DNA from: an uncultured virus (IMG/VR IMGVR_UViG_3300021958_011310) | Taxonomy: Duplodnaviria > Heunggongvirae > Uroviricota > Caudoviricetes | Strand: one strand, 5' to 3' | IMG/VR virus record: IMGVR_UViG_3300021958_011310 | DNA length: 64,000 nucleotides | Part shown: positions 33,815 to 61,102 of the stretch, one piece after another | How positions within the stretch are numbered: position 1 is the stretch's first letter | How the letters are laid out: each line of letters opens with the position of its first letter | The notes under the pieces: generated by a model | Databases searched by the model: none | What the model saw: the letters and a program-made list of their open reading frames with translations, nothing else | Told to the model about the DNA's origin: nothing | Program-made: the position numbers and the translations under genes

Positions 33815-34563
33815 ATATGATACCCTTGTTCACAACCGATCATAGTATAGGAAAATCTATACTAAAATTTAAACCAACGAGACCAAATGGCCCCGATAGT
33901 GTTATAGATATTGCTAAACAACATGGTTTGGAAAAAGTCTTTTTATTGGAAAACAGAATGCATGGATTCCTTGATTACTTGAGATATTCTGAAAAAAGCG
34001 ATTTTGATTTTGTTTTTGGTTTAAGGCTTCAGGTAGCTAGTGATTTCGAGAAAAAGAGCTCACACAGAATAAATATATTTGCAAAAAATAATCAAGGCAT
34101 AAAACTCTTATATAAGATATACTCCTTAGCTTTTAGCGAAAGGGATGGTAGAGTTTGCGAACAAGATATTTTAAAGTTTTGGAGTTCTGATGATTTGCTG
34201 TTAGCTATACCTTTTTATGATTCGTATGTTTATTACAATAACCTAACTTTTGAAAACTTTATCCCTGATTTCAGTAAATTCGGTAGCGTTACAATGTTTA
34301 CGGAAGATAATGGTCTGCCTTTCGATAACATTCTTAGAGAAAAAGTAAAGGTAGCTGCTAATTATTACGGAGCAACAACGCAAGAAGTAAAATCTATATA
34401 TTATAAAGATAGAAAAGATTTTGCCGCATACCAAGTCCGCAGAATTATTGACGCAAGGCAAGGAGCTAGAACAAGCAGCTTAAGTAAGCCGAATTTAGAA
34501 TCGTGCGGAAGTGCAGAATTTAGTTTTGAAAGTTGGCTTGATCATGAAAAAGAAACTGTTTAA
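33811..34563 (+). CDS. Stand-alone PHP domain of DNA polymerase III alpha
   Basis: HSIGKSIL, FGLRL and FAKNNQGIKLLYKI motifs resemble the DnaE N-terminus. Confidence 0.7.
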   Translation: MNMIPLFTTDHSIGKSILKFKPTRPNGPDSVIDIAKQHGLEKVFLLENRMHGFLDYLRYSEKSDFDFVFGLRLQVASDFEKKSSHRINIFAKNNQGIKLLYKIYSLAFSERDGRVCEQDILKFWSSDDLLLAIPFYDSYVYYNNLTFENFIPDFSKFGSVTMFTEDNGLPFDNILREKVKVAANYYGATTQEVKSIYYKDRKDFAAYQVRRIIDARQGARTSSLSKPNLESCGSAEFSFESWLDHEKETV

Positions 34564-34966
34564 ATCTGAAAAAATATATATCGGTCAATCTCAAACTCAT
34601 GGATATGGGGTTTTTTGCAATCAGGATATTAAAAAGGGAGAGTTAATAGAAGAATGTTATTATCTAACACCTAATAGATCAAAGTGGCAAGATTTAGACG
34701 AAACATTTTTAAATTATTTTTTTGCTATCCCCTGTTTACAAGATGGCCACGCTGAGTTTGCAGACAAAAACGGAGGCGTCAATATTGGTCACATTACTAG
34801 ACCGGTATGTGTTTTAGGCTCCGGTATGATTTTTAACCACTCTAAAAATGCTAATGTAGACTATACGTATTTTGAACCAAGCCAAATATTTTCCTATAGG
34901 GCTAATAGGTCAATAAAACAAGGGGCAGAACTTTTTGTAGAATACAACGAATACTCTAAATTTTAA
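34544..34966 (+). CDS. SET-domain protein (lysine methyltransferase-like)
   Basis: HGYGVF..IKKGELIE, IFNHS..AN and IKQGAELFVEY motifs. Confidence 0.85.
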   Translation: MKKKLFKSEKIYIGQSQTHGYGVFCNQDIKKGELIEECYYLTPNRSKWQDLDETFLNYFFAIPCLQDGHAEFADKNGGVNIGHITRPVCVLGSGMIFNHSKNANVDYTYFEPSQIFSYRANRSIKQGAELFVEYNEYSKF

Positions 34967-35603: not shown

Positions 35604-38161
35604 GCTTTAGTGATAATTTTTCAAAATACGATGATTGTGCCCCTGCAGGAGTAGTGTTACCTGTGATTGAGATAGAAGAAAAATGGTACAATAAACTCAA
35701 TATAGATAAATCTTCATCTAATGACACTTTTTTATTGCACCTTTGTTTAATGTGTTTCAAGCAAAAAGGTTTAGATAAAAAAGAAAATAAGCAAGTCTAC
35801 GTAGATAGGATAAAAAAGGAATACAAAATTCTACAAAAATTAGGTTTTATCGATTATATCTTGCTTAATTGGGACATTTTAAACTGGTGTCATGAACAAG
35901 AGATTCCTACTGGAGCAGGTAGGGGTAGTGCTGCAGGATCTTTGATCCTGTACCTTTTAGATGTTACAAAAGTTGACCCAGTAAAACATGGTTTATTTTT
36001 CGAGAGGTTTGTTTCTGAGAGCAGAGCTAGAAAAATAGAAAAAAACGGTATAACATATCTAGATGGAAGTTTGCTTGCAGATGTTGATAACGATATTGCT
36101 TTTGACCGAAGGCAAGAAGTTATAGATTATATTGGTAAAAGGCACCCAGAAAGAACAGGTCGAATTTTAAACTTGGTGACCCTTAGTGGTAAAATATGTA
36201 TCAAAGAAGTAGGTAAAATAGTTGGAGATTACACGGAACAAGAAATGAACGGTGTTAGCGATTTAATACCGTCTCATTTTGGTAAGGTAGCAAAGTTAGC
36301 GGAAGCTTTCGAGGAAAGCGAGCACTTTAAAAAGTGGGCAACGGAAAATCCTAAAGTTTTTACTGTGGCTCAAAAATTAGAAGGCTTAATTAAAAACACT
36401 GGAGTACATGCTTCGGGTATAGCTATTTCAAGCGAAAAATTAACAAATATATGCCCCACCCAAAGCACTAAAGAAGGTCACCTCATAACATGTTACGATA
36501 TGAATTCCACCGCTGATCTTAGTGTTAAATTTGATATTTTAGGTCTTAAAACTTTATCTGTACTTAAAGATGCTTGTGATAATGCAGGGGTGAATTTAGA
36601 TTCGATAAATGTAGAAGAGCCTGATTTATACAAGCATTTTCAAGAGCTTGATTGCTCTCAGGGGCTCTTTCAAATTGAAGCGGATACAAATTTACATGTT
36701 TGCAGAACAGTTAGACCCAGAAACTTAGAAGAGGTTTCAGCTGTGGTAGCTATAGCCAGACCCGGAGCCTTACAGTTTAAAGATGACTTTGCTGAATATG
36801 TTCAAACTGGAGATTTTCAAACTCAGCATTCTTTGTTTAATGATATTTTATCTTATACAGCTGGCATCCCCCTTTATCAAGAGCAACTAATGCAAATGGC
36901 AGTAAAAATTGGCTTCAGCCTTGACGAAGCAGAACAACTTAGAAGAATTGTTGGCAAAAAAAAGGTTGATCAAATGCCTGCGTGGAAGCAAAAGATTTCA
37001 GATAAAATTAAAGAGAATGGTATAGATGAAATAGCTGGTAAAATTTTATGGAAGGTTGCTGAAGATTCAGCGAATTATTCTTTTAACAAATCTCACTCTA
37101 TTGCTTATGCTATCTTAGCTATGAAAACTGTATATATGAAATTCAATCATCCTTTAGATTTTCATATTGCCTTGCTTAGAAACTCCAAGCACGAACAAGA
37201 TCCTTATGACATTATAGATAAAATACAAAAAGATCTATCCATGATGAACATAAAGCTTCTTCCTCCTGATTTAGCAAAAAGTGAAATGGATTTTAGCAAA
37301 GAGGATAATAATATTAGATATGGTTTAAACTCCATAAAAGGCATAAGTGAAAAAACCTTACAAGCAATAATAGATTTCAGAAAAGAAGAGTGCCCGGATT
37401 TAATGAGCATGTTTGTCGCAGCAAAACAAGCTAAAATTAATATTGCTGTATTAAGCAGCTTGATTCAAGCTGGTGCTTTAAATAGTTTAGTTGACGGCAA
37501 AAGAAGTAAAGCTGCGCTGGAAGCGCAGTTATTTAACACTCTTACGGACAGGGAAAAACGAATATTTATGAATCTCGGTTCTAAATATGATTATAGTTGC
37601 ATAAAAATCTGGGAAAAAGAAATCGTAAATGGTCCCAACATAGGGGACGATGGTAAACCTTTGATTAAACCCGGCAGGCAAGAAACTATAAAAAATAAAA
37701 TGGCTCCTTGTATCGAGATATATAAACATAACAAATCGAATCCTGATTTTGCCAATTGGTTTTTTGAAAAGAAATTGTTAGGGTACAATTATTCCTCTAG
37801 ATTAAAAGATTGTTTATCTAAAAAATACCTAACTAGAGGTTTAGAGGAGTTAAGAGGCGAATCTGAGAAGGTTAATTTTAGGTCAGTCGGCATAGTAAAA
37901 GAATCTTCTTTAAAAAGAACTAGAAGTAGCAACAAAAGATACTTAACATTTGTATTATCTGATGAGAGAAACGAGGCTAAGTGTTTCCTTTGGCAAGAAG
38001 GGCTAGAAAAACTAGAAAAAAACAATCAAAAAGTGCCGCAAAAAGATGATATTGTTGTAGTGGTGGGACAAACAATGCCGGACCAAGCCTTAACCGTGCG
38101 TGACATAAAAGTATTTGATACAAAAATTTACATGAAAATGAAGGATTTGAAAAGCTCATGA
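35600..38161 (+). CDS. dnaE: DNA polymerase III alpha subunit (lacking the PHP domain)
   Basis: GRGSAAGS, FERF, DVDND, KFDILGL and FNKSH motifs. Confidence 0.93.
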   Translation: MSFSDNFSKYDDCAPAGVVLPVIEIEEKWYNKLNIDKSSSNDTFLLHLCLMCFKQKGLDKKENKQVYVDRIKKEYKILQKLGFIDYILLNWDILNWCHEQEIPTGAGRGSAAGSLILYLLDVTKVDPVKHGLFFERFVSESRARKIEKNGITYLDGSLLADVDNDIAFDRRQEVIDYIGKRHPERTGRILNLVTLSGKICIKEVGKIVGDYTEQEMNGVSDLIPSHFGKVAKLAEAFEESEHFKKWATENPKVFTVAQKLEGLIKNTGVHASGIAISSEKLTNICPTQSTKEGHLITCYDMNSTADLSVKFDILGLKTLSVLKDACDNAGVNLDSINVEEPDLYKHFQELDCSQGLFQIEADTNLHVCRTVRPRNLEEVSAVVAIARPGALQFKDDFAEYVQTGDFQTQHSLFNDILSYTAGIPLYQEQLMQMAVKIGFSLDEAEQLRRIVGKKKVDQMPAWKQKISDKIKENGIDEIAGKILWKVAEDSANYSFNKSHSIAYAILAMKTVYMKFNHPLDFHIALLRNSKHEQDPYDIIDKIQKDLSMMNIKLLPPDLAKSEMDFSKEDNNIRYGLNSIKGISEKTLQAIIDFRKEECPDLMSMFVAAKQAKINIAVLSSLIQAGALNSLVDGKRSKAALEAQLFNTLTDREKRIFMNLGSKYDYSCIKIWEKEIVNGPNIGDDGKPLIKPGRQETIKNKMAPCIEIYKHNKSNPDFANWFFEKKLLGYNYSSRLKDCLSKKYLTRGLEELRGESEKVNFRSVGIVKESSLKRTRSSNKRYLTFVLSDERNEAKCFLWQEGLEKLEKNNQKVPQKDDIVVVVGQTMPDQALTVRDIKVFDTKIYMKMKDLKSS

Positions 38162-40572
38162 AAAATTATTCTTTTACAAATAGATCACAATGGCTTTATA
38201 ACAAAGCTGCAAAGATATGTAGTGAACTAAAACAAAAGCAAGTAACCGTAGAGCATCTGATCGCAGCGTTTTTCTTTTGTGAAGAATCTAAGTCTATCAG
38301 GATCTTATCAGAAATAGGTTTCGATTATGAAAGCTTTAGAACATGGATTGTTGAAGATTTTTTTCAAGAGCCGAGCGATGAAGCTAAAAAAAATAAAATC
38401 CTAACTGTAAGTGCATCCAAAGAGATTATAGATATTTTCCAAACCGCAAAGGAGTTTTCTCAGGAATGTGATGACGGGTGGGTATCTATCGATCATATTT
38501 TTATAGGTATTATTTCTAATATAGATTCCGTCAATACTGCGGTTGCAGAAAAAATGGACTTTGATTATGAAGAATACGAAGAACGAATAATAAAATATTT
38601 TAATAATGAGACCTTTGTCGAAGAGCCTTTAGAACAAAAGGCTGAATCAAAAAAGAATAAAGGCAGCAAAAAAAACATTCTTGACCGCTGTTGCATTAAT
38701 CTGACATCTAAATGTCAAGAGTTAGAATACAGAATAAAAGGCAGAGATCAAGACCTTGAAAAAATGCAATACATCCTCAATCGCAAAACAAAAAATAATG
38801 TTTTGATAGTAGGTGATTCAGGTGTCGGTAAAACAGCCTTAGTCGAATATCTCGCCCACTCCATAGCCTCTAACTCATGCAATGTTTTATTGTCAGACAA
38901 ACAAATTTATTTGCTGAATTTGAATTCTTTAGTTTCAGGAACTAAGTATCGTGGGGATTTTGAGAGAAAAATGCAGAGTGTTATTGACGAATGCAAAAAC
39001 TCTAATATCATTCTTTATATTGACGAAATTCACACCTTAGTTGGCGCAGGAGATGCCGAAGGAGGCTTAGATGCAGCTAACAGTTTAAAACCTTATTTAT
39101 CAAATGGCGAGATAACTGTAATAGGATCTACCACATACGAAGAATATCGTAAAAAAATACACAAAGATAAAGCTTTAAGCAGAAGGTTCGATTTAATTAA
39201 CCTCAAGGCTCCATCAGCAAAAGAAACTTTAAACATATTAAGAAATAAAAAAGATTATTTCATTGATTACCATGGTGTTTCTATTGATGATCAAATTTTG
39301 ATTGATATTATTGATCTCGCAGATAAACACATAAGAGATACTAATTTCCCAGATAAAGCAATCGATCTTTTAGATTTGGCATGTAGCCACTGTAAAGTAC
39401 AAAAGACCCATAAACCAAAATCCCTTTTAGAAAAGGAGGCTGAAGTTGTAAATGTCTTGGTTGATATGGCATGCAAAAACAAAAAAGAACAAAACAAAGC
39501 ATTAGAAAAACTTTCTGTTTCAGGCTTTAAACAGGAATACGAAAAATGGCTTGCTAAAATTGATTCATCTAACGTAATAGGTAAGTTATCAATAACTCAT
39601 GTTATAGATGCTCTATGCCATAAGACTGGAATACCAAAAGATAAGTTTAGCAAAAAAAACAAGAACAAATATATTAATCTAGAAAAAGAGATTAAAAAAG
39701 ATATTGTCGGCCAAGACGAAGCGATCTCTAAAATAACCAAATGTTTATTGCGTTATAAAAGCGGCTTAAGAGATATCAAAAAACCTATAGGTAGTTTTTT
39801 ATTTTTAGGCTCTACTGGCGTAGGTAAAACTTTTTTAGCAAAAACTTTAGCCAATAAAATGTTTATAGCTGAAGATAATTTTGTTAGATTTGATATGTCA
39901 GAATTTTCAGAAGAGCAGAGTATTTCTAAGCTGATAGGGAGTAGTCCGGGTTATGTTGGTCACGATAGAGGAGGGTTACTTATTGAAAAAGTTTGCCAGA
40001 ATCCTCATACTTTAATTTTATTTGACGAGATAGAAAAAAGTCACCCTAAAGTTCAAAAGGTTTTGTTGCAAATTCTAGAAGAAGGGGAGCTCACAGATTC
40101 TATAGGGAGAAAAGCTGATTTTAATAACTGTGTTATTATTGTTACAGGTAATATAGGATCTAGCCAACTATCACAAAAAACAATGCTTGGATTTAAGCCT
40201 AATATACCAAGTGAAGACATTAAGGAAGAAGCTTTTAAAACTTTAAAAAAACATATGGCCCTTGAACTTATGAACAGGTTTGATGAAATCGTATTTTTTA
40301 ACGACTTTACGGAGGAAGGGGTGAAAAAAATAATTAAAAAAGAACTTAACTTTTTTTCTCAGGTCAATGGTACAAAAATTAATTATAATGCATCTTTGAT
40401 AGATTTTATTCACAAAAAGAATAATAAAAAAGAGTTTGGCGCTAGGCAAATTAAAAGAATTATACAGAATGAAGTATTAGACCTTTTATCTATTTTTCTT
40501 TTAAATTATTCCGGCAAGAAAAGCGTGTCAGTTTATTTTTCACCAAAAACTAATAAAGTGGAGATCAAATAA
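38158..40572 (+). CDS. ClpA/ClpB/ClpC-family AAA+ ATPase
   Basis: Two Walker A motifs (GDSGVGKT, GSTGVGKT), IDEIH, FPDKAIDL and GARQ. Confidence 0.92.
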   Translation: MKNYSFTNRSQWLYNKAAKICSELKQKQVTVEHLIAAFFFCEESKSIRILSEIGFDYESFRTWIVEDFFQEPSDEAKKNKILTVSASKEIIDIFQTAKEFSQECDDGWVSIDHIFIGIISNIDSVNTAVAEKMDFDYEEYEERIIKYFNNETFVEEPLEQKAESKKNKGSKKNILDRCCINLTSKCQELEYRIKGRDQDLEKMQYILNRKTKNNVLIVGDSGVGKTALVEYLAHSIASNSCNVLLSDKQIYLLNLNSLVSGTKYRGDFERKMQSVIDECKNSNIILYIDEIHTLVGAGDAEGGLDAANSLKPYLSNGEITVIGSTTYEEYRKKIHKDKALSRRFDLINLKAPSAKETLNILRNKKDYFIDYHGVSIDDQILIDIIDLADKHIRDTNFPDKAIDLLDLACSHCKVQKTHKPKSLLEKEAEVVNVLVDMACKNKKEQNKALEKLSVSGFKQEYEKWLAKIDSSNVIGKLSITHVIDALCHKTGIPKDKFSKKNKNKYINLEKEIKKDIVGQDEAISKITKCLLRYKSGLRDIKKPIGSFLFLGSTGVGKTFLAKTLANKMFIAEDNFVRFDMSEFSEEQSISKLIGSSPGYVGHDRGGLLIEKVCQNPHTLILFDEIEKSHPKVQKVLLQILEEGELTDSIGRKADFNNCVIIVTGNIGSSQLSQKTMLGFKPNIPSEDIKEEAFKTLKKHMALELMNRFDEIVFFNDFTEEGVKKIIKKELNFFSQVNGTKINYNASLIDFIHKKNNKKEFGARQIKRIIQNEVLDLLSIFLLNYSGKKSVSVYFSPKTNKVEIK

Positions 40573-42881: not shown

Positions 42882-42943
42882 AAATGGCAACACTGCACGA
42901 ATATTCGAATATAAAATCTAAAAGTAAACATAATAATAAACAT

Positions 42944-44101
42944 ATGAGCGAAGAAGAAAACACAGAAAATCAAGATTTAGAAGATACAGAGTTACAGGAA
43001 ATTGATGACTTAGGAGTGGATATGCCTGATATCCCGTTACCAAGCGAAGAGGAGCCTGAAGAAGTTATTGAAGATGAGTTTACTTCTGCTTACAAGTTTG
43101 CTGTTGTTGGTGTAGGGCAAGGTGGCTCTAGATTAGCTGAAACCTTTTGGAAATTAGGCTATAGGCGAGTCGCAGCCATCAATACTGCTGCTCAAGATTT
43201 GAAGCCTTTAAAGATTCCAGAAAATAATAAATTGCTTATCGGGGGCTCAGGCGCAGGTAAAAACAGAGAAGTGGCGAAAGAAATTTTTCAATCACATAGA
43301 GAAGATATTTTAGATTTTCTTAAAAATGTTTTTAAAAGTGATTTTGATAGGGTTTTAGTGTGCATTGGTGCTGGAGGAGGAACTGGCGCTGGAGGTGGCC
43401 CTATTGTTGTTGAGATTGCTCACGATCTCTGTGAAAGCTTTGGGATTGAGACTTCGGATTTTCAAGCTAAAGTTGGGTCAATTGTAGCATTACCAACTAA
43501 AGCTGAAGGATCTAGGGTCATTTCTAATGCTAAAGAAACCACAGATGCTTTAATAAATTTTTGCAATAATGGTACGCTTTCCCCTTTGGTAATCCTTGAT
43601 AATGAAAGGATTAAACAAATTTATCCAAGATTATCTGTTAATAAATTTTGGAATACTGCTAATGCTAGCATTTGTTCTTTGTTCCATTTATTCAACAAAG
43701 TCTCAGCTCAAGATTCAGAATACACAGCCTTTGATAAGGCTGACTTAGATACAGTTTTATCTTCTGGAATTATTTCTTTTGGAGCAGTGCCTGTTAGGAT
43801 GAAGGAGGAAGAGGTTCAAGAAACGGACATAAGTTATGCAGTAAGAGATAACCTAAAGAAAAATATTTTAGCTAACATTGATGTGGCTTCAGGTAAAGTA
43901 GCTTCATGCGTAGTTATTGGCGATAGAGGTATCCTTGATAATACTCCGCAAGAATATCTTGAGCATGGGTTTGAGCAACTAAGCAGAATCTTGGGCGATG
44001 GTTCAACTGTTCATAGAGGGATTTACCATACATCTAAAAAAGGTTTAGTTGTCTATACTATTATTGGGGGAATTGAAGCTCCTGAGCAATTATTTAAGTG
44101 A
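42944..44101 (+). CDS. Tubulin/FtsZ-family GTPase (TubZ/PhuZ-like)
   Basis: VGVGQGG, AINTA, GAGK, GGGTGAG, LDN and FDKAD motifs. Confidence 0.88.
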   Translation: MSEEENTENQDLEDTELQEIDDLGVDMPDIPLPSEEEPEEVIEDEFTSAYKFAVVGVGQGGSRLAETFWKLGYRRVAAINTAAQDLKPLKIPENNKLLIGGSGAGKNREVAKEIFQSHREDILDFLKNVFKSDFDRVLVCIGAGGGTGAGGGPIVVEIAHDLCESFGIETSDFQAKVGSIVALPTKAEGSRVISNAKETTDALINFCNNGTLSPLVILDNERIKQIYPRLSVNKFWNTANASICSLFHLFNKVSAQDSEYTAFDKADLDTVLSSGIISFGAVPVRMKEEEVQETDISYAVRDNLKKNILANIDVASGKVASCVVIGDRGILDNTPQEYLEHGFEQLSRILGDGSTVHRGIYHTSKKGLVVYTIIGGIEAPEQLFK

Positions 44102-53132: not shown

Positions 53133-53347
53133 TGAATGTACATGTACCAGATGAATTGAAATTAAAATACCCGCAAATGGAATTTCGTGGAAAACCCCGG
53201 ATTATTTCCGGAAAAAAAGTAATTGCAGCAAAGAATAATGCAACCGATCAACACTTTTATTATTCTTTTGATGAAGACTTTTTTTGGTTTAAAAATTGTG
53301 AGATACCAGATTGGCATATAATATAATGTATAATTTAAACAAAAAGA

Positions 53348-54076
53348 ATGAAACCACATTACCACATAGTTATAATTCCAGATATTCATTTAAAACATGA
53401 ATCTGTAGGAGATTTTTTGAGTTCATGTACATACGATAAAGCTATATTTATTGGAGATTATTTTGATGATTTTGGAGATTATCCATGGCAGAATAAAATT
53501 ACTGCCAAATGGTTGAAAGAATCCATTTACGTTAATAATCATATTCATTTAATTGGGAATCACGATTTACCGTATATGTTTAATGGGAAAGGGTATCTGT
53601 GTTCTGGGTTTGATTATGATAAAAATAAAGTTATCAATAAAGTTCTAAGGAAATACGATTGGGCTCAATTAAAATTATTTCATATTGAACAAATAAACGG
53701 TGAAAATTGGTTGTTTAGTCATGCAGGATTTACAAATAGTTGGATTACAGAAAATACTGATAACCCTATCACAATGCTTATTAATGAGGAAGAATGGTTT
53801 GATCATGTTTTATCAAAACAATTAATTGTCGAAAATTCATTATTTCGTAATGTAAGTCCTCGATCAGGTGGGTCTCATAAAAGATCTGGTTTGTTGTGGT
53901 GCAGAACTTCTGAATTTACCCCAATTAAAGATTTAAATCAGGTGTTTGGGCACACCCCAACCCTTGATCTTATTCCGGTTGAAATATATCCGAAAAATTG
54001 GGCTATTGATACTCACTTAAATTATATTTGTACGATGAATGAACAAGGAGTAATGACAACTCATGAAATTAACTAA
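53348..54076 (+). CDS. Calcineurin-like metallophosphoesterase
   Basis: DIH, GDYFD, GNHD, SHAG and GHT motifs. Confidence 0.9.
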   Translation: MKPHYHIVIIPDIHLKHESVGDFLSSCTYDKAIFIGDYFDDFGDYPWQNKITAKWLKESIYVNNHIHLIGNHDLPYMFNGKGYLCSGFDYDKNKVINKVLRKYDWAQLKLFHIEQINGENWLFSHAGFTNSWITENTDNPITMLINEEEWFDHVLSKQLIVENSLFRNVSPRSGGSHKRSGLLWCRTSEFTPIKDLNQVFGHTPTLDLIPVEIYPKNWAIDTHLNYICTMNEQGVMTTHEIN

Positions 54077-54586
54077 AGAACATCTAAAACCAGTCTGGTA
54101 TCAAGTCGAGGATCAAGTCAGTAATCAAGTCTGGGTTGAAGTCAGGGATCAAGTCTGGGTTCAAGTCAGGGATCAAGTCTGGGATCAAGTCTGGTATCAA
54201 GTCTGGTATCAAGTCAGGAATCAAGTCAGTTATCAAGTCGAGGATCAAGTCGAGGATCAAGTCTATAATGAAATTAACTAAAGAACATCTAAAACCAGTC
54301 AGGGTTCAAGTCGGGGCTCAAGTCTATGATCAACTCTGGGTTCAAGTCTGGGATCAAGTCTGGGATCAAGTGTGGGATCAAGTCTATGATCAAGTCGGGT
54401 TTCAAGTCAGGGATCAAGTCAGGGATCAAGTCTGGGATCAAGTCTGGGTTCAAGTCGGGGATCAAGTCGGGGATCAAATCTGGGATCAAATCTGGGATCA
54501 ACTCTGGGTTCAAGTATATCATGAAATTAACTAAAGAACATCTAAAACCATTAAGTCTATTGGCAAGTCAGGCAAATTGTTTTTAA
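54063..54586 (+). repeat. Array 1 of chained [11 protein letters not shown](QVxx)n mini-ORFs: 54063-54281, 54268-54534 and degenerate 54521-54586
   Basis: 12-bp unit CAAGTC-NNNNNN with a conserved junction ATGAAATTAACTAAAGAACATCTAAAACCA. Confidence 0.9.
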
Positions 54587-54603
54587 AATAATGCAAAAAA
54601 AGC

Positions 54604-54632
54604 TTGTCAAGAGTGCAAAAATAGGTCATAAT
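54604..54632 (+). promoter_or_regulatory. Sigma70-type promoter of the DUF6745-like cassette
   Basis: TTGTCA-17 bp-CATAAT. Confidence 0.5.
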
Positions 54633-54696
54633 GAATTCAGAAAGTAAGAAAAACGATATACTGAAAACAACAAGTATAATATTATAGATATAAATT

Positions 54697-55017
54697 ATGA
54701 AAACAAACAAAGTTAAGCCAATGAGACAAGGTGATGTGCTAATTCTTCCAGTAAAGAGCATTCCAAAGAGCCTTGTTAAAACCGAAAAAGTAACCCTAGC
54801 GCTTGGTGAAGCCACTGGACACCACCACACTATTTTTGCTGGAGCTGTTGGGTTTGCTGAAAACACATCTGCTTTGTCAGATTATTTCGAAGTTACTACA
54901 AAAACTGCGGATCTGACTCATCAGGAACACACTACAATTACCATTCCGAAAGGGAAGTACCGGAAGGTGATTCAAAGCGAATATATTGAACAAGACAATC
55001 GAAAAGTGGTTGACTAA
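54697..55017 (+). CDS. Small His-motif protein, typical partner of DUF6745 genes
   Basis: RQGDV, LALGEATGHHH and HQEH..I.IPKGKY..Q.EY motifs. Confidence 0.7.
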   Translation: MKTNKVKPMRQGDVLILPVKSIPKSLVKTEKVTLALGEATGHHHTIFAGAVGFAENTSALSDYFEVTTKTADLTHQEHTTITIPKGKYRKVIQSEYIEQDNRKVVD

Positions 55018-55069
55018 TTTAAGATATTCCTATAATTAAACCATCGAAGAAATAACGAATAAAACGAAC

Positions 55070-56089
55070 ATGATTAAAATCAAAGAATTGACACCAGAGC
55101 AAGAAGCCTTATTTCCAGAATTTGTTGAAAAGTGGGTTTCTATTGGGTTGGACACGAGCGAGTGTAACATTATTGATATGGTTGAAGCTATCAAAGAAGT
55201 TTATTCCATTCAAAATTTGACACCACCCGAATTTTATATCGGCCCAGTGAACACTCCATATGAAGGTGCAATTGCAGAGAAAGTTCTTCATGAATTTGTT
55301 GCAAATGAAACGGAATTTCGCGATGCACAACACCTTAACGAACTCGTTTTGGCAGAAGTAGCTCAACGAGTTGCAAACAACAAAAAGGAGTCAGCATCAC
55401 TGAATAGTCAAATCTATGGTAATGCCGATTATTGGTTGAGCTTTTATGATTACTGGTTGCGTATCAATACCATGGTACCTGAAGAAAATCGTATCGAAGG
55501 TATTGATATTGTTAAGCCATTGATCAAGCTCGCTGAACATATCGGTTGGTGGACACCATTGCAAGGCGTTGCAATTCTCCAACACAAACCAGCAGAAATT
55601 CATCGCGATGAAGAACATCGATTGCATAATCCTGATGGATATGCTTTGAAATATCGAGGAGATTATACGGTATGTAATCTGTATAAGATTCATGGCGTTA
55701 CAGTTCCAGAGTCAGTAATCAAGAAAACGTTTACTGCACAGGATATTGAGAAGGAAGACAACGTTGAGGTTCGTCGAGTTATGCTCGACATTTATGGGAC
55801 TGAACGATTTCTTGAAGAAACGAATGCAATTGAAATTCATTCAGATGAATTCGGTGTGTTGTATAAGAAAGAATTCGGAGGAGACATTGAAGATATGTAC
55901 GCGGTGAAGGTTGTTAATTCCACACCTGAGCCAGACGGAACGTATAAAGATTATTTTCTCCGAGTGGACCCAAAGTGTTACGGTGGTATTACGACAGCAC
56001 GTGCTGCGGTGGCTTCGACATGGAAGAACGATGATGGATCGTTGGTATTCGAATCTCCCGAAGATTACGATTGCTCAATCGAAACATAA
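55070..56089 (+). CDS. DUF6745-like protein
   Basis: LTPEQEAL..W, WLSFYDY, GWW, HRDEEHRLH..DGYA, HGV.VP, NVEVRR and STPEPDG...YFLRV motifs. Confidence 0.75.
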   Translation: MIKIKELTPEQEALFPEFVEKWVSIGLDTSECNIIDMVEAIKEVYSIQNLTPPEFYIGPVNTPYEGAIAEKVLHEFVANETEFRDAQHLNELVLAEVAQRVANNKKESASLNSQIYGNADYWLSFYDYWLRINTMVPEENRIEGIDIVKPLIKLAEHIGWWTPLQGVAILQHKPAEIHRDEEHRLHNPDGYALKYRGDYTVCNLYKIHGVTVPESVIKKTFTAQDIEKEDNVEVRRVMLDIYGTERFLEETNAIEIHSDEFGVLYKKEFGGDIEDMYAVKVVNSTPEPDGTYKDYFLRVDPKCYGGITTARAAVASTWKNDDGSLVFESPEDYDCSIET

Positions 56090-56104
56090 TTGATATAAAC
56101 CTCT

Positions 56105-56136
56105 AAGAGCCTCTAGATTAATCTAGAGGCTCTTTT
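56105..56136 (+). terminator. Terminator formed by a perfect 30-bp palindrome
   Basis: AAGAGCCTCTAGATTAATCTAGAGGCTCTT followed by TT. Confidence 0.8.
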
Positions 56137-56157
56137 AATATATTGGTCTTTATTTAC

Positions 56158-56959
56158 GTGAAATTAACTAAAAAACATTTAAAACCAGTCGAGGATCAAG
56201 TCTGGGATCAAGTCAGGGATCAAGTCTGGGATCAAGTCTGGGATCATGTCGAGAATCAAGTCTATGATCAAGTCAGGAAACAAGTCAGGAAACAAGTCAG
56301 GGATCAAGTCTATAATGAAATTAACTAAAGAACATTTAAAACCAGTCTATGATCAAGTCTGGGGTCAAGTCTATGATCAAGTCTATGATCAAGTCGGGTT
56401 TCAAGTCAGGTATCAAGTCAGGGATCAAGTCTGGGATCAAGTCTGGGATCATGTCGAGAATCAAGTCAGGGATCAAGTCTATAATGAAATTAACTAAAGA
56501 ACATTTAAAACCAGTCTATGATCAAGTCTGGGGTCAAGTCTATGATCAAGTCTGGGATCAAGTCTGGTATCAAGTCGGGGCTCAAGTCTATGATCAAGTC
56601 GGGTTTCAAGTCAGGTATCAAGTCAGGGATCAAGTCTGGGATCAAGTCTGGGATCATGTCGAGAATCAAGTCTATCATGAAATTATTTAAAGAACATTTA
56701 AAACCAGTCAGGAATCAAGTCAGTTATCAAGTCTATGATCAAGTCAGGAGTCAAGTCTATGATCAAGTCGATAATCATGTCGATAATCATGTCTGGTATC
56801 AAGTCGGGGATCAAGTCGGGGATCAAGTCGGGGCTCAAGTCTATGATCAAGTCAGGGATCAAGTCTATTGGCCAGTCATGGATCAAGTCGATGATCAAGT
56901 CTATTGGCAAGTCTGGGATAAAGTCCATGATGAAATTAACTAAAGAATATGAATTATAA
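56158..56959 (+). repeat. Array 2 of chained (QVxx)n mini-ORFs: 56158-56328, 56315-56497, 56484-56690, 56677-56943 and stub 56930-56959
   Basis: Same 12-bp unit and junction motif as array 1. Confidence 0.9.
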
Positions 56960-57860
56960 AGAATCAGGAGTAGATATAAAAAAAACAGATAATCTTGTAA
57001 AACAAATTTCTGGGTTGGTAGATAATATCGGTGGATTTGGAGGTCTTTTTGATTTAGGGGATAGTTATCTTGTTGGTGCTACAGATGGCGTTGGCACAAA
57101 AATTCTTCTTGCCCAAGAATATGATATGCTTGATGGTATTGGGATTGATTGTGTCGCTATGTGTGTTAATGATATTATATGTACCGGCGCTAAACCATTA
57201 TTCTTCTTAGATTACTTTGCCTCCTCAAATATAGAAGAAAAACAATATTTAACAGTTTTAAATTCTATTAAAAAAGGTTGCGAAATAGCAGGTATCCCTC
57301 TTATCGGGGGGGAAACAGCAGAATTGCCTTCATTAGTAACTGATAATCATTTTGATGTCGCAGGTTTTTGTGTTGGCATAGTAAAGAAAAAAGATTTAAT
57401 TGACGGCAAGAAAATTAAAAAAGGTGATATAGTAGTTGCGTTTCCAAGTAACGGGTTTCACAGCAACGGCTATTCTTTAGTTAGAAGCATCTTCGACAAG
57501 GAAAAGCATGAGAAATATATTGACAAAATTTTAAAGCCTACAGAGATCTACGCAAAAGAAGTCTTGAATATATTAGAGGCAGGGGTTAATATTCATGGGA
57601 TAGCTCATATTACTGGCGGAGGATTAAGTAATTTAGATCGCATTCTTCCTCAAGACTTAAAAGTTAAATGGAAAAATGATATTACTAAGCCTTTTGTATT
57701 TGACTTACTTCAAAAAGATGGTAATATATCTGGCGAAGAAATGGAAAGAGTCTTTAATAATGGTATAGGTTTATGTATGGTTGTAGATCCTAAAGAAGTT
57801 AATAAAGTTTTCTTGCAGAAAATTAATAGGCCTGCCATGATTGTTGGGCATATAGAATAA
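56949..57860 (+). CDS. purM: AIR synthetase
   Basis: YKESGVDI, TDGVGTK, AMCVND, GGETAE, HSNGYSL and HITGGG motifs. Confidence 0.95.
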   Translation: MNYKESGVDIKKTDNLVKQISGLVDNIGGFGGLFDLGDSYLVGATDGVGTKILLAQEYDMLDGIGIDCVAMCVNDIICTGAKPLFFLDYFASSNIEEKQYLTVLNSIKKGCEIAGIPLIGGETAELPSLVTDNHFDVAGFCVGIVKKKDLIDGKKIKKGDIVVAFPSNGFHSNGYSLVRSIFDKEKHEKYIDKILKPTEIYAKEVLNILEAGVNIHGIAHITGGGLSNLDRILPQDLKVKWKNDITKPFVFDLLQKDGNISGEEMERVFNNGIGLCMVVDPKEVNKVFLQKINRPAMIVGHIE

Positions 57861-58420
57861 TAGTATGAATAAAACTGAGGTAGTACTTATATTTGTTGTT
57901 TTGGTGTTATTAGCATTATTTGTTGCTAACTTCACAATCCTTTTCAAAATACACGATGACCAACAGATAATTAAAAATAAAATAGATTTAATAACTAAAT
58001 GACAAATCAATTAAAAAGTGCTTTAACAGATATATTTGTAGATGCAGGGACAGGAGCTATAGTTACAGCAGTGCTTTACTTCGTATTCCTAGCAGGAGGA
58101 CATTCCTCTCCTCTTGGGGCTGCGTTTGGGCTAGGGGCTAGGGGCTTGGGTATTTTGCATTTTTACAGGAGTACACTGCATGTTAACTGATGGAGGAGCC
58201 ATCTTGATAGTGAGTTTATTATTAGGTTTTATCGGTATAGCGGCAGGAATATTGTATTTAGTTCTTCAGTTTTTTCTGGGATTATTAGTGTGAAAAATTA
58301 AATGAAAGAAGTTATAAAAAACATTTTAGATGAATACACTAAACATTCATTTCAAGTAAATCTTGACAGTGAGGCTTCAAGATACGCATTAGCGGAACAC
58401 ATAGAAGAAGGAATAAAAAA

Positions 58421-59914: not shown

Positions 59915-61102
59915 ATGAGAATATTATCTCTACTATTAATAGTTTGGGCTCACCCTACATTAGCCCAAGAACCTGAAAACTGGAATATATTTAACAAAAA
60001 CACTTTGTATAAGAGCGATAGCGGCTTCATCAGAGATGTTAAATTGAAAGGTAGGTACCATGGTCAATACATCAGCCAAGATGAGGATATCGGTGGTATC
60101 AAAGATAATGAATACGATGTCTACCACCATCGCCGTGCGCGAATCCAAATGGACTTCGATTTCGATCATAATTTTTCCTTTGGTTTCGATGCAAACATTT
60201 CGGATGGCCATGGTTCCAGAACAGCTCTTAGCGATGAGGGTTCTTTCGTAAACAACTTCCAAACGTTCAACCTCCAATGGAAACCCAGCGACAAATATTA
60301 TTTCATTATCGGTAAAGACAAGCAGGATATTACCCGTGAGGACATTCAATCGTCGAGATATATCAAAACGGTTGAACGTGCCCCTATCGTGAATGAAATC
60401 GGCCAGCAACGTCCATGGGGAGCTCAAGTGGGATTCTTTACTAAAGGTATTGAACATCGGCTTGGTGCTTGGGTTTATGGTGCCCATGAAGATGGTCCAG
60501 AGTGGGTTGACTTTCGCGCTAATAAAGGACTATCCTATAACCTCACCTATCCGGTAAAAGATGATCTTTCCTTTCACTTCGACTGGAACTTTGTGAATAA
60601 TGAAGGTGGTCGTGAACGAGCACGGGGTGATGCTTCTGTAGGTACTTTCGGATCTGCTTATGAACACGCATTCGCTTTGGGTTTTGATTACGAAAAAGGT
60701 CCATTCAAAGTCATTTCTGATGTGATCTACGGAGCCAACCGTGAGGGAGTTGCAGCAAGTAAGGGGTCTGCAGCTATTCCGGCTGGACATGATACATGGG
60801 GTTTCTATGTATTACCTTCTTATAAAATTACTGACAAGCTTGAAGGGGTTTTCCGCTACCAATACATGGGTTCAGGGCGTGAACAACGTACTCAGCGATT
60901 TGGGCATGATGGTGATGGAGACAGAAACGCGAGACTCAATGTTGAGAACTATCATTCAGTTTACTCTGGATTTCAGTATTTTCTAAGTGAAGAGAATCTC
61001 AAGCTCATGGCTGGTTATGAGTATGCATGGGGCGAGCTTTTGGGAAGCGATACAGAAATTAACACAGGAAGCTGGCAGTTGGCAATACGAACTTACTTTT
61101 AA
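59915..61102 (+). CDS. Outer-membrane porin, OprO/OprP (phosphate-selective)-like
   Basis: Signal peptide, RRARI and SSRYIKTVER motifs, beta-barrel with terminal aromatic RTYF. Confidence 0.75.
   Translation: MRILSLLLIVWAHPTLAQEPENWNIFNKNTLYKSDSGFIRDVKLKGRYHGQYISQDEDIGGIKDNEYDVYHHRRARIQMDFDFDHNFSFGFDANISDGHGSRTALSDEGSFVNNFQTFNLQWKPSDKYYFIIGKDKQDITREDIQSSRYIKTVERAPIVNEIGQQRPWGAQVGFFTKGIEHRLGAWVYGAHEDGPEWVDFRANKGLSYNLTYPVKDDLSFHFDWNFVNNEGGRERARGDASVGTFGSAYEHAFALGFDYEKGPFKVISDVIYGANREGVAASKGSAAIPAGHDTWGFYVLPSYKITDKLEGVFRYQYMGSGREQRTQRFGHDGDGDRNARLNVENYHSVYSGFQYFLSEENLKLMAGYEYAWGELLGSDTEINTGSWQLAIRTYF

Follow-up and report, generated by a model that had tools for sequence, protein, structure and literature searches.

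To our knowledge, proteins built around a tetrapeptide repeat have been studied genetically in one system only, that of gp54 of mycobacteriophage Tweety. This protein carries 48 AAxx units, each encoded by 12 bp, with its relatives Che8 gp57 and PMC gp51 having 26 and 15 units, respectively (PMC2884959); the first six bases of the unit are invariant and variation falls at first and second codon positions (Pham et al., PMC2884959), and escape mutants in which the repeat number of gp54 has risen or fallen are reported to overcome the defence provided by Phrann gp29/gp30, so that a change in copy number retunes a counter-defence (PMC9262239). Variable region 2 of bbp36 of Bordetella phage BMP-1, a gene that is not essential, is described as a tandem repeat kept in frame whose copy number depends on the isolate (PMC2884959). 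The + strand locus analysed here lies in a 64,000-nt stretch of DNA (hereafter the window) from an uncultured Caudoviricetes virus, IMG/VR record IMGVR_UViG_3300021958_011310, and presents a similar repeat in the form of arrays of separate mini-genes, placed around a two-gene cassette that encodes a DUF6745 protein (the core) and a 106-residue partner. The reading favoured here, with a probability of about 0.5, is that these are coupled micro-genes for a detached helix of DUF6745 proteins, whose products would act with the core in phage-host conflict.

Two arrays are found, one on either side of the cassette, holding between them six complete open reading frames (mini-ORFs, 56-88 residues) and two stubs. 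Each complete mini-ORF consists of an 11-residue head, a tract (Q-V-x-x)n with n from 10 to 18 and a tail Y/H-N/H/D-E-I-N/I, the length being 16+4n in all six, and within each array every mini-gene starts 14 nt before the stop codon of the preceding one, inside the common string ATGAAATTAACTAA. Tandem Repeats Finder gave a period of 12, with 35.2 copies at 54092-54515 and 55.9 copies at 56193-56866, and the motif CAAGTC-N6-CAAGTC occurs 56 times from 54102 to 56913, always on the + strand, compared with zero occurrences in 100 shuffles. In a profile of 90 units, positions 1-6 are almost fixed (CAAGTC in 70/90), most of the variation falls at positions 7, 8 and 10, and position 12 is T in 86/90. 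The repeat-array observation is real and non-random, and the variation is focused on the two variable residues of each unit. The first-pass annotation, made from the sequence alone, had described six complete mini-ORFs and two stubs with this pattern, a 12-bp unit with near-invariant CAAGTC followed by two variable codons, and copy numbers differing between ORFs; the architecture was fully reproduced, the 90-unit profile bore out the description of the unit, and the copy numbers do differ.

The likeness to gp54 lies in the 12-bp unit with an invariant first half, in the variation of the last two codons at their positions 1-2, in W and G being frequent as third residue, and in a repeat number that varies between related phages. 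The two designs differ in the fixed dipeptide, which is AA in gp54 and QV in the window, and in their setting, since the gp54 tract lies between N- and C-domains of one polypeptide whereas in the mini-proteins nothing but an 11-residue head and a 5-residue tail flanks the tract, and gp54 has no arrays of separate mini-genes. The locus had been put forward as a candidate undescribed diversification system, a claim that has to be qualified, gp54 being a published analogue of the repeat design (PMC2884959). Another comparison is offered by the Mycobacterium prophage prophiGD102-1 (MW584211.1), in which gp38 is a DUF6745 member (Pfam E 6e-29) carrying about 50 QLxx units internally, at the site equivalent to that where the window core has none, the window having six separate genes instead; gp37, encoded upstream of gp38, matches the profile of the 106-residue family (E 4.6e-16). 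The repeated element of bbp36, as described, differs in being 24 bp long and in lying within a single gene. Like diversity-generating retroelements, the locus focuses amino-acid change in an accessory phage gene on particular codon positions, but it has no template/variable repeat pair, its variation is not limited to adenines, and change proceeds by gain, loss and shuffling of units and genes. No reverse transcriptase was found by Pfam among the 56 window ORFs of at least 100 residues, nor among 8 local proteins scanned separately, and given this absence from the scanned ORFs the reading as a retroelement of that kind was rejected. A CRISPR-like reading was also discarded, the units being only 12 bp.

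The relationship between the repeat and DUF6745 was followed in two sets of loci. A search of IMG/VR with the exact 21-mer GATCAAGTCTGGGATCAAGTC retrieved 89 stretches on 74 contigs, in nine of which the tract lies inside a DUF6745 protein, while in 24 others mini-gene arrays stand within 3 kb of a tract-less DUF6745 of about 290 residues. This linkage contrasts with the tblastn background, where only two of 50,697 phage records matched, and it answers affirmatively the question, raised in the first-pass annotation, of whether QV ORFs co-occur with DUF6745 on other phage contigs. The second set comprised 80 metagenome loci for which DUF6745 similarity was the sole basis of selection, an internal tract being counted from at least five units. 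Here 26 loci are fused, with an internal tract (one of them ambiguous), and 23 are split, with external arrays and an internal tract in 0/23. The repeat module is thus either inside DUF6745 or external to it, almost never both; such mutual exclusivity is expected if the mini-genes are the detached tract, and it supports externalisation.

Further observations concern the site of detachment. DUF6745 has 6,552 representative relatives at E <= 0.001, and an internal tetrapeptide tract, starting at residue 62-121, is present in 39 of the best 150 of them; in the alignment, the tract site just precedes the conserved segment YG..WL.FYDF. The short cores adjoining arrays align to the family profile in two pieces, skipping columns ~76-112, which is where fused forms carry the tract. 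Some mini-gene tails end in QVYG (L021, L133), resembling the post-tract core sequence Q-I/V-Y-G, of which the equivalent in the window core is SQIYG at residues 113-117. Arrays on both sides of the core recur in the L017 and L065 lineage, in L055 and in L076. The statement that many DUF6745 homologues have internal QV/QL repeats, on which the first-pass annotation had built its idea of an externalised repeat, is therefore borne out by both the representatives and the metagenome loci, and the idea itself gains support from the fused/split exclusivity, the missing profile columns and the QVYG tails. Its statement that the window copy has no tract was also correct: the window core has 0 tandem units at the tract site, falling outside the internal-tract subgroup. 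In their place stands the helix LNELVLAEVAQRVA, residues 86-102, with V93, V97 and V101 four residues apart, which from the alignment and an AlphaFold2 model may be read as a degenerate three-unit relic of the tract. Unlike the simplest split-type cores, the window core is full-length; the 288-residue split-type core of L017, by comparison, has no such helix.

A QV/QI tract is also present near the C-terminus of a 399-residue frame in locus L015 (1191-2387, - strand), with flanks that are not DUF6745 and no Pfam match above cut-off, so that the tract may have been recruited there by another protein. A macro domain considered for this ORF was not borne out by the Pfam search.

The arrays are hypervariable. 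Five contigs from different samples have 100% identical DUF6745 DNA (four full-length, one partial) and differ in the number of mini-genes, the same set including an 89-residue chimera of two neighbouring paralogues. In six metagenome relatives with 95-96% identical DUF6745, heads and tails (Y[HN]EIN) are constant and no tract is alike, with up to eight genes seen in the right array, compared with four in the window. The length rule 16+4n holds for 20 of the 25 complete ORFs of these relatives, the other five having in-frame indels or a changed end, and the first gene after the terminator has a GTG start in all five relatives where it is visible (L107-L111). The arrays therefore change fast, as 12-bp units and whole genes are gained or lost and paralogues form chimeras, next to an identical or nearly identical core. 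Short-read contigs break at the arrays, and contig links that seem to connect one array with the other result from cross-matching repeats. The 21-residue stub that borders the cassette on the left resembles what is left of a mini-gene. In L108, a 96% relative, the left array closes with a gene that reads through into the equivalent downstream sequence, ending in ..KQIVFKIM; compared with the stub of the window, this read-through indicates that the array border itself is variable.

Whether the mini-ORFs are genes cannot be judged from their length. Three of six frames (two +, one -) are open across the first gene of array 1, the sole gene body tested, and long ORFs exist in other frames over both arrays too, so ORF length alone is no evidence of coding. 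A better indication comes from codon usage across lineages. In the window, Q and V are encoded by CAA and GTC (76 and 77 times), whereas L001 uses CAG GTA and L011 CAG GTT, and other lineages fix SV, NL, QL or SA in place of QV. That the dipeptide is kept with differing codons argues for selection at the protein level. Locus L001 was located through its DUF6745 protein, independently of the DNA motif, and in both of its genes the QV frame is the only open frame on the + strand. Within runs, in the window and 14 other loci, start and stop codons overlap mostly by 4, 8, 11, 14 or 17 nt. The heads follow the pattern M-K-x-V/L.. in lineage-specific versions (MKSVK.., MNSVK.., MTVKK.., MKLKSV..), and the acidic-hydrophobic tails are lineage-specific as well (DDIQ, EDLDD, EDIENE, ENIK, NEIN). 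In fused relatives the tract lies in frame between Pfam-verified domains, and no internal stop interrupts the 6 window ORFs or the 25 complete ORFs of relatives. Contigs from RNA libraries of two studies span the cassette (54682-56188 and 54765-56100) together with short pieces of both arrays, which is a weak hint of expression; depth in these libraries rises over the cassette relative to the adjoining genes, but such depth is a poor measure and carries no weight here. Taken together, the mini-ORFs are predicted from sequence to be, most likely, genuine coupled micro-genes.

Searches with the mini-proteins were of little help for function. PHROGs 5189, 33514 and 34652 match them weakly only (E 4.3e-5 to 6.7e-3), and 108 small proteins are similar to them at E <= 0.001, none of them informatively named. 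The sequence of mini-gene 2 is present in the ESM Atlas, where the nearest clusters are all viral hypothetical proteins. DUF4816 was considered as the mini-protein family and discarded as compositional, its matches scoring 19.7 and 23.6 bits, below the cut-off of 29.4. Some structural information came from an AlphaFold2 model of the fused relative L027, with 32 units, in which residues 60-203, tract included, form one continuous helix. On the basis of this model, the mini-proteins are probably helical rods, with a length of roughly 8-13 nm if 1.5 Å per residue is assumed.

The cassette itself is better conserved. The core scores 152.6 bits against PF20530, where the cut-off is 27, and is a member of the family; its AlphaFold2 model has a predicted local distance difference test score (pLDDT) of 93.7. 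A Foldseek search with this model gave no match at E <= 0.001, and comparison of the fold with the PDB gave no clear counterpart (best VIA-align Z only 4.6), the sequence search against it yielding nothing meaningful. The partner gene ends 52 nt upstream of the DUF6745 gene. Partner homologues adjoin DUF6745 in 39 ORF matches among the IMG/VR loci, in 49 of the 80 metagenome loci and in 76 of 80 bacterial genome loci, mostly from actinomycetes, and the 106-residue protein and DUF6745 are a conserved pair. One part of a viral 366-residue DUF6745 cluster in the ESM Atlas superposes on the partner (template-modelling score 0.70 by query), which suggests that natural partner-core fusions exist. 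The partner gave only sub-threshold noise against Pfam at E <= 10; the ESM Atlas labels it PF31129, a family missing from the Pfam copy used. No paper mentioning DUF6745 or PF20530 was found in a literature search by name, and a search with repeat-peptide strings returned nothing relevant.

The pair is also common in actinomycete chromosomes, mostly without tracts, as seen in Actinomadura madurae (L197) and 75 other bacterial loci (L187-L266). In A. madurae it sits among genes for a ThrE exporter, a RecQ-like helicase and a radical SAM protein.

The cassette had been credited with its own promoter and palindromic terminator. The terminator stood up well, its stem of 13 bp having a z of -5.5. 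The promoter-like site exists, and such sites show no excess over the region, with 13 found against 9.8 in shuffles (standard deviation 3.3); a cassette promoter at this place is plausible from the sequence.

Coordinates of these features and of the genes bordering the locus are collected in Table 1.

Table 1. Features of the mini-gene locus and its borders (positions counted from the first letter of the window; aa, amino acids)
Feature	Description	Position	Strand	Evidence
Metallophosphatase gene	Left border	53348..54076	+	Pfam Metallophos E 3e-8
Mini-gene 1	72 aa, 14 QVxx units	54063..54281	+	ORF
Mini-gene 2	88 aa, 18 units	54268..54534	+	ORF
Left stub	21 aa, intact head followed by out-of-register degenerate CAAGTC-containing units	54521..54586	+	ORF
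Promoter-like site	TTGTCA-17-CATAAT	54604..54632	+	10/12 consensus matches
Partner gene	106 aa, His-rich (RQGDV..GEATGHHH..HQEH)	54697..55017	+	phrog_27831 E 2.4e-14
DUF6745 core gene	339 aa, without tetrapeptide tract	55070..56089	+	Pfam PF20530 E 1.1e-44
Intrinsic-terminator hairpin	13-bp stem, 4-nt loop, then U-run	56105..56134	+	-23.8 kcal/mol, z -5.5
Mini-gene 3	56 aa, GTG start, first after terminator	56158..56328	+	ORF
Mini-gene 4	60 aa	56315..56497	+	ORF
Mini-gene 5	68 aa	56484..56690	+	ORF
Mini-gene 6	88 aa, most diverged; head MKLFKEHLKPV; HV, PV and KV among units	56677..56943	+	ORF
Right stub	9 aa, last junction/head copy, overlaps purM start at 56949	56930..56959	+	ORF
purM-like AIR synthase gene	Right border	56949..57860	+	Pfam AIRS and AIRS_C

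The window as a whole looks like a portion of a large phage genome. Its Pfam-type content includes a ribonucleotide reductase, dUTPase, dNMP kinase, dCMP deaminase, purT and purM, and further proteins are a Pol III alpha-like polymerase, a DnaB-like helicase and a RecA-like protein. The Pfam scan also revealed a tubulin/FtsZ-like GTPase, a SET-domain protein, a ClpB-like double AAA ATPase and a porin O/P-like protein, the four being encoded, jointly, at 42884-44101, 34511-34966, 38158-40572 and 59915-61102. At the left border of the locus, the C-terminus of the metallophosphatase (..THEIN*) and its stop codon fall in the 14-nt junction that links mini-genes (54050-54081), as if the left array had either arisen from the 3' end of this unrelated gene or been joined to it by recombination. 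Neither megablast of 53300-58000 nor blastn of 56140-56960 found a match among the 50,697 phage records, because of the low-complexity filter and of there being no close cultured relatives. A PADLOC search for defence systems gave no credible match.

In the explanation proposed here, the mini-proteins would be free-standing copies of the tetrapeptide helix found between the N- and C-terminal DUF6745 domains. They would act with the core, whether they dock on it or share a partner with it, so that a single core could draw on a shifting repertoire of rods differing in length and surface, and by analogy with Tweety gp54 the module may work in phage-host conflict. We infer both the action in trans with the core and the role in conflict from the architecture of the loci and from that analogy. 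A more specific version is possible, although tentative, in which the rods form a protein-level combinatorial library, docking on the two-protein core in turn or mixed and offering many specificities against host targets. The targets would then be variable host defence or receptors, and the phage population would renew the set through 12-bp slippage and recombination between paralogues.

Several observations weigh against the proposed coupling of rods, core and conflict. As many as 41 of the 74 contigs found with the 21-mer have arrays without DUF6745 in the fetched flank. A search of the whole records of 10 of these 41 placed DUF6745 5-9 kb away in four, which include all three records at least 61% complete, and the other six were negative, though each is only 12-19% complete. 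On one 149-kb IMG/VR contig (L022, L085), a second QV array lies ~35-39 kb from the DUF6745-adjacent one. Such distant arrays and array-only contigs mean that adjacency to DUF6745 is not obligatory. Among the 80 metagenome loci, 31 have neither tract nor arrays, some with full flanks (L121, L160); in at least 13 of the 31 the contig edge truncates the 5' end, a probable effect of assemblies stopping in the tract. The window core has its own helix (H86-102) at the tract site and no obvious missing piece that would need supply in trans. Confidence of AlphaFold2 in the tract of L027 is moderate (pLDDT 62-76), and a single straight helix would set the two DUF6745 domains far apart. The RNA-library contigs possibly derive from contaminating DNA, and part of the variation between contigs could be an artefact of the assembly of tandem repeats from short reads. 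Finally, the core pair is found among ordinary chromosomal genes of actinomycetes as well, and the core is therefore not phage-specific, while gp54 has no Pfam match, shows no homology to DUF6745 by hhalign (probability 0.05%) and has no homologue of the 106-residue partner within the surrounding 12 kb searched, so that a counter-defence role can be carried over by analogy only.

Some of these points would be accommodated if the mini-proteins acted alone, for instance as sponges for a host factor, as its inhibitors or as decoys, their proximity to DUF6745 resulting from gene fission only. The array-only contigs, the second array ~35 kb away and the helix retained by the window core all fit such stand-alone action. 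It is nevertheless rather unlikely, given that a tract inside DUF6745 and arrays outside it exclude one another, that 3/3 array-bearing records at least 61% complete encode DUF6745, and that several lineages have arrays on both sides of the core. The link with the core would be historical in another way if the repeats were a 12-bp minisatellite, neutral or selfish, that had escaped from the DUF6745 gene, with the ORFs as non-functional by-products. Slippage by 12 bp preserves the frame without selection, three of six frames are indeed open across the tested gene body, and the uniform Q and V codons within a lineage are those predicted by homogenisation at the DNA level. A minisatellite is improbable in view of the overlapping starts and stops and the lineage-specific heads and tails (window and 14 loci), of Q-V being kept through three different codon pairs, of heads and tails that stay constant in the 95-96% relatives despite reshuffled tracts, and of the lack of stops in all 31 complete ORFs (6 in the window, 25 in relatives).

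The first-pass annotation had also raised the option that the mini-genes serve as recombination donors, that is, silent cassettes from which tracts are copied into an expressed gene, as in cassette-based antigenic variation. Such donors would account for the many paralogous tracts that have diverged between homologous heads and tails, and for the chimeric genes between paralogues. The option is disfavoured, and now seems quite improbable, as an acceptor tract is present in 0/23 of the split-type, array-adjacent cores and is lacking in the window core too, and as each cassette has its own coupled start and stop, unnecessary for silent donors. Least probable is that the repeats function as DNA, as iteron- or centromere-like sites for the adjacent proteins, with coding being incidental. 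CAAGTC is strongly conserved within the lineage, third codon positions included, and an exact 21-mer is common to 74 viral contigs, as DNA sites would require; elsewhere, however, CAGGTA or CAGGTT is found, as are SV, NL and QL units, so no DNA word is conserved, and in fused forms the tract lies in a coding region.

The tetrapeptide repeat thus forms the variable middle of DUF6745, a little-studied family of great size (6,552 representative clusters) with which a conserved partner protein is associated. In the favoured reading of coupled micro-genes for a detached helix, many phages have this repeat separated into arrays of fast-evolving micro-genes that are predicted to be translated independently. 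Micro-genes of 50-90 codons built from simple repeats routinely escape annotation or are masked by BLAST filters. Should the rods act with the core, they would represent a new viral way of diversifying a binding or spacing element, with no reverse transcriptase or invertase, and would give a handle on the role of DUF6745.

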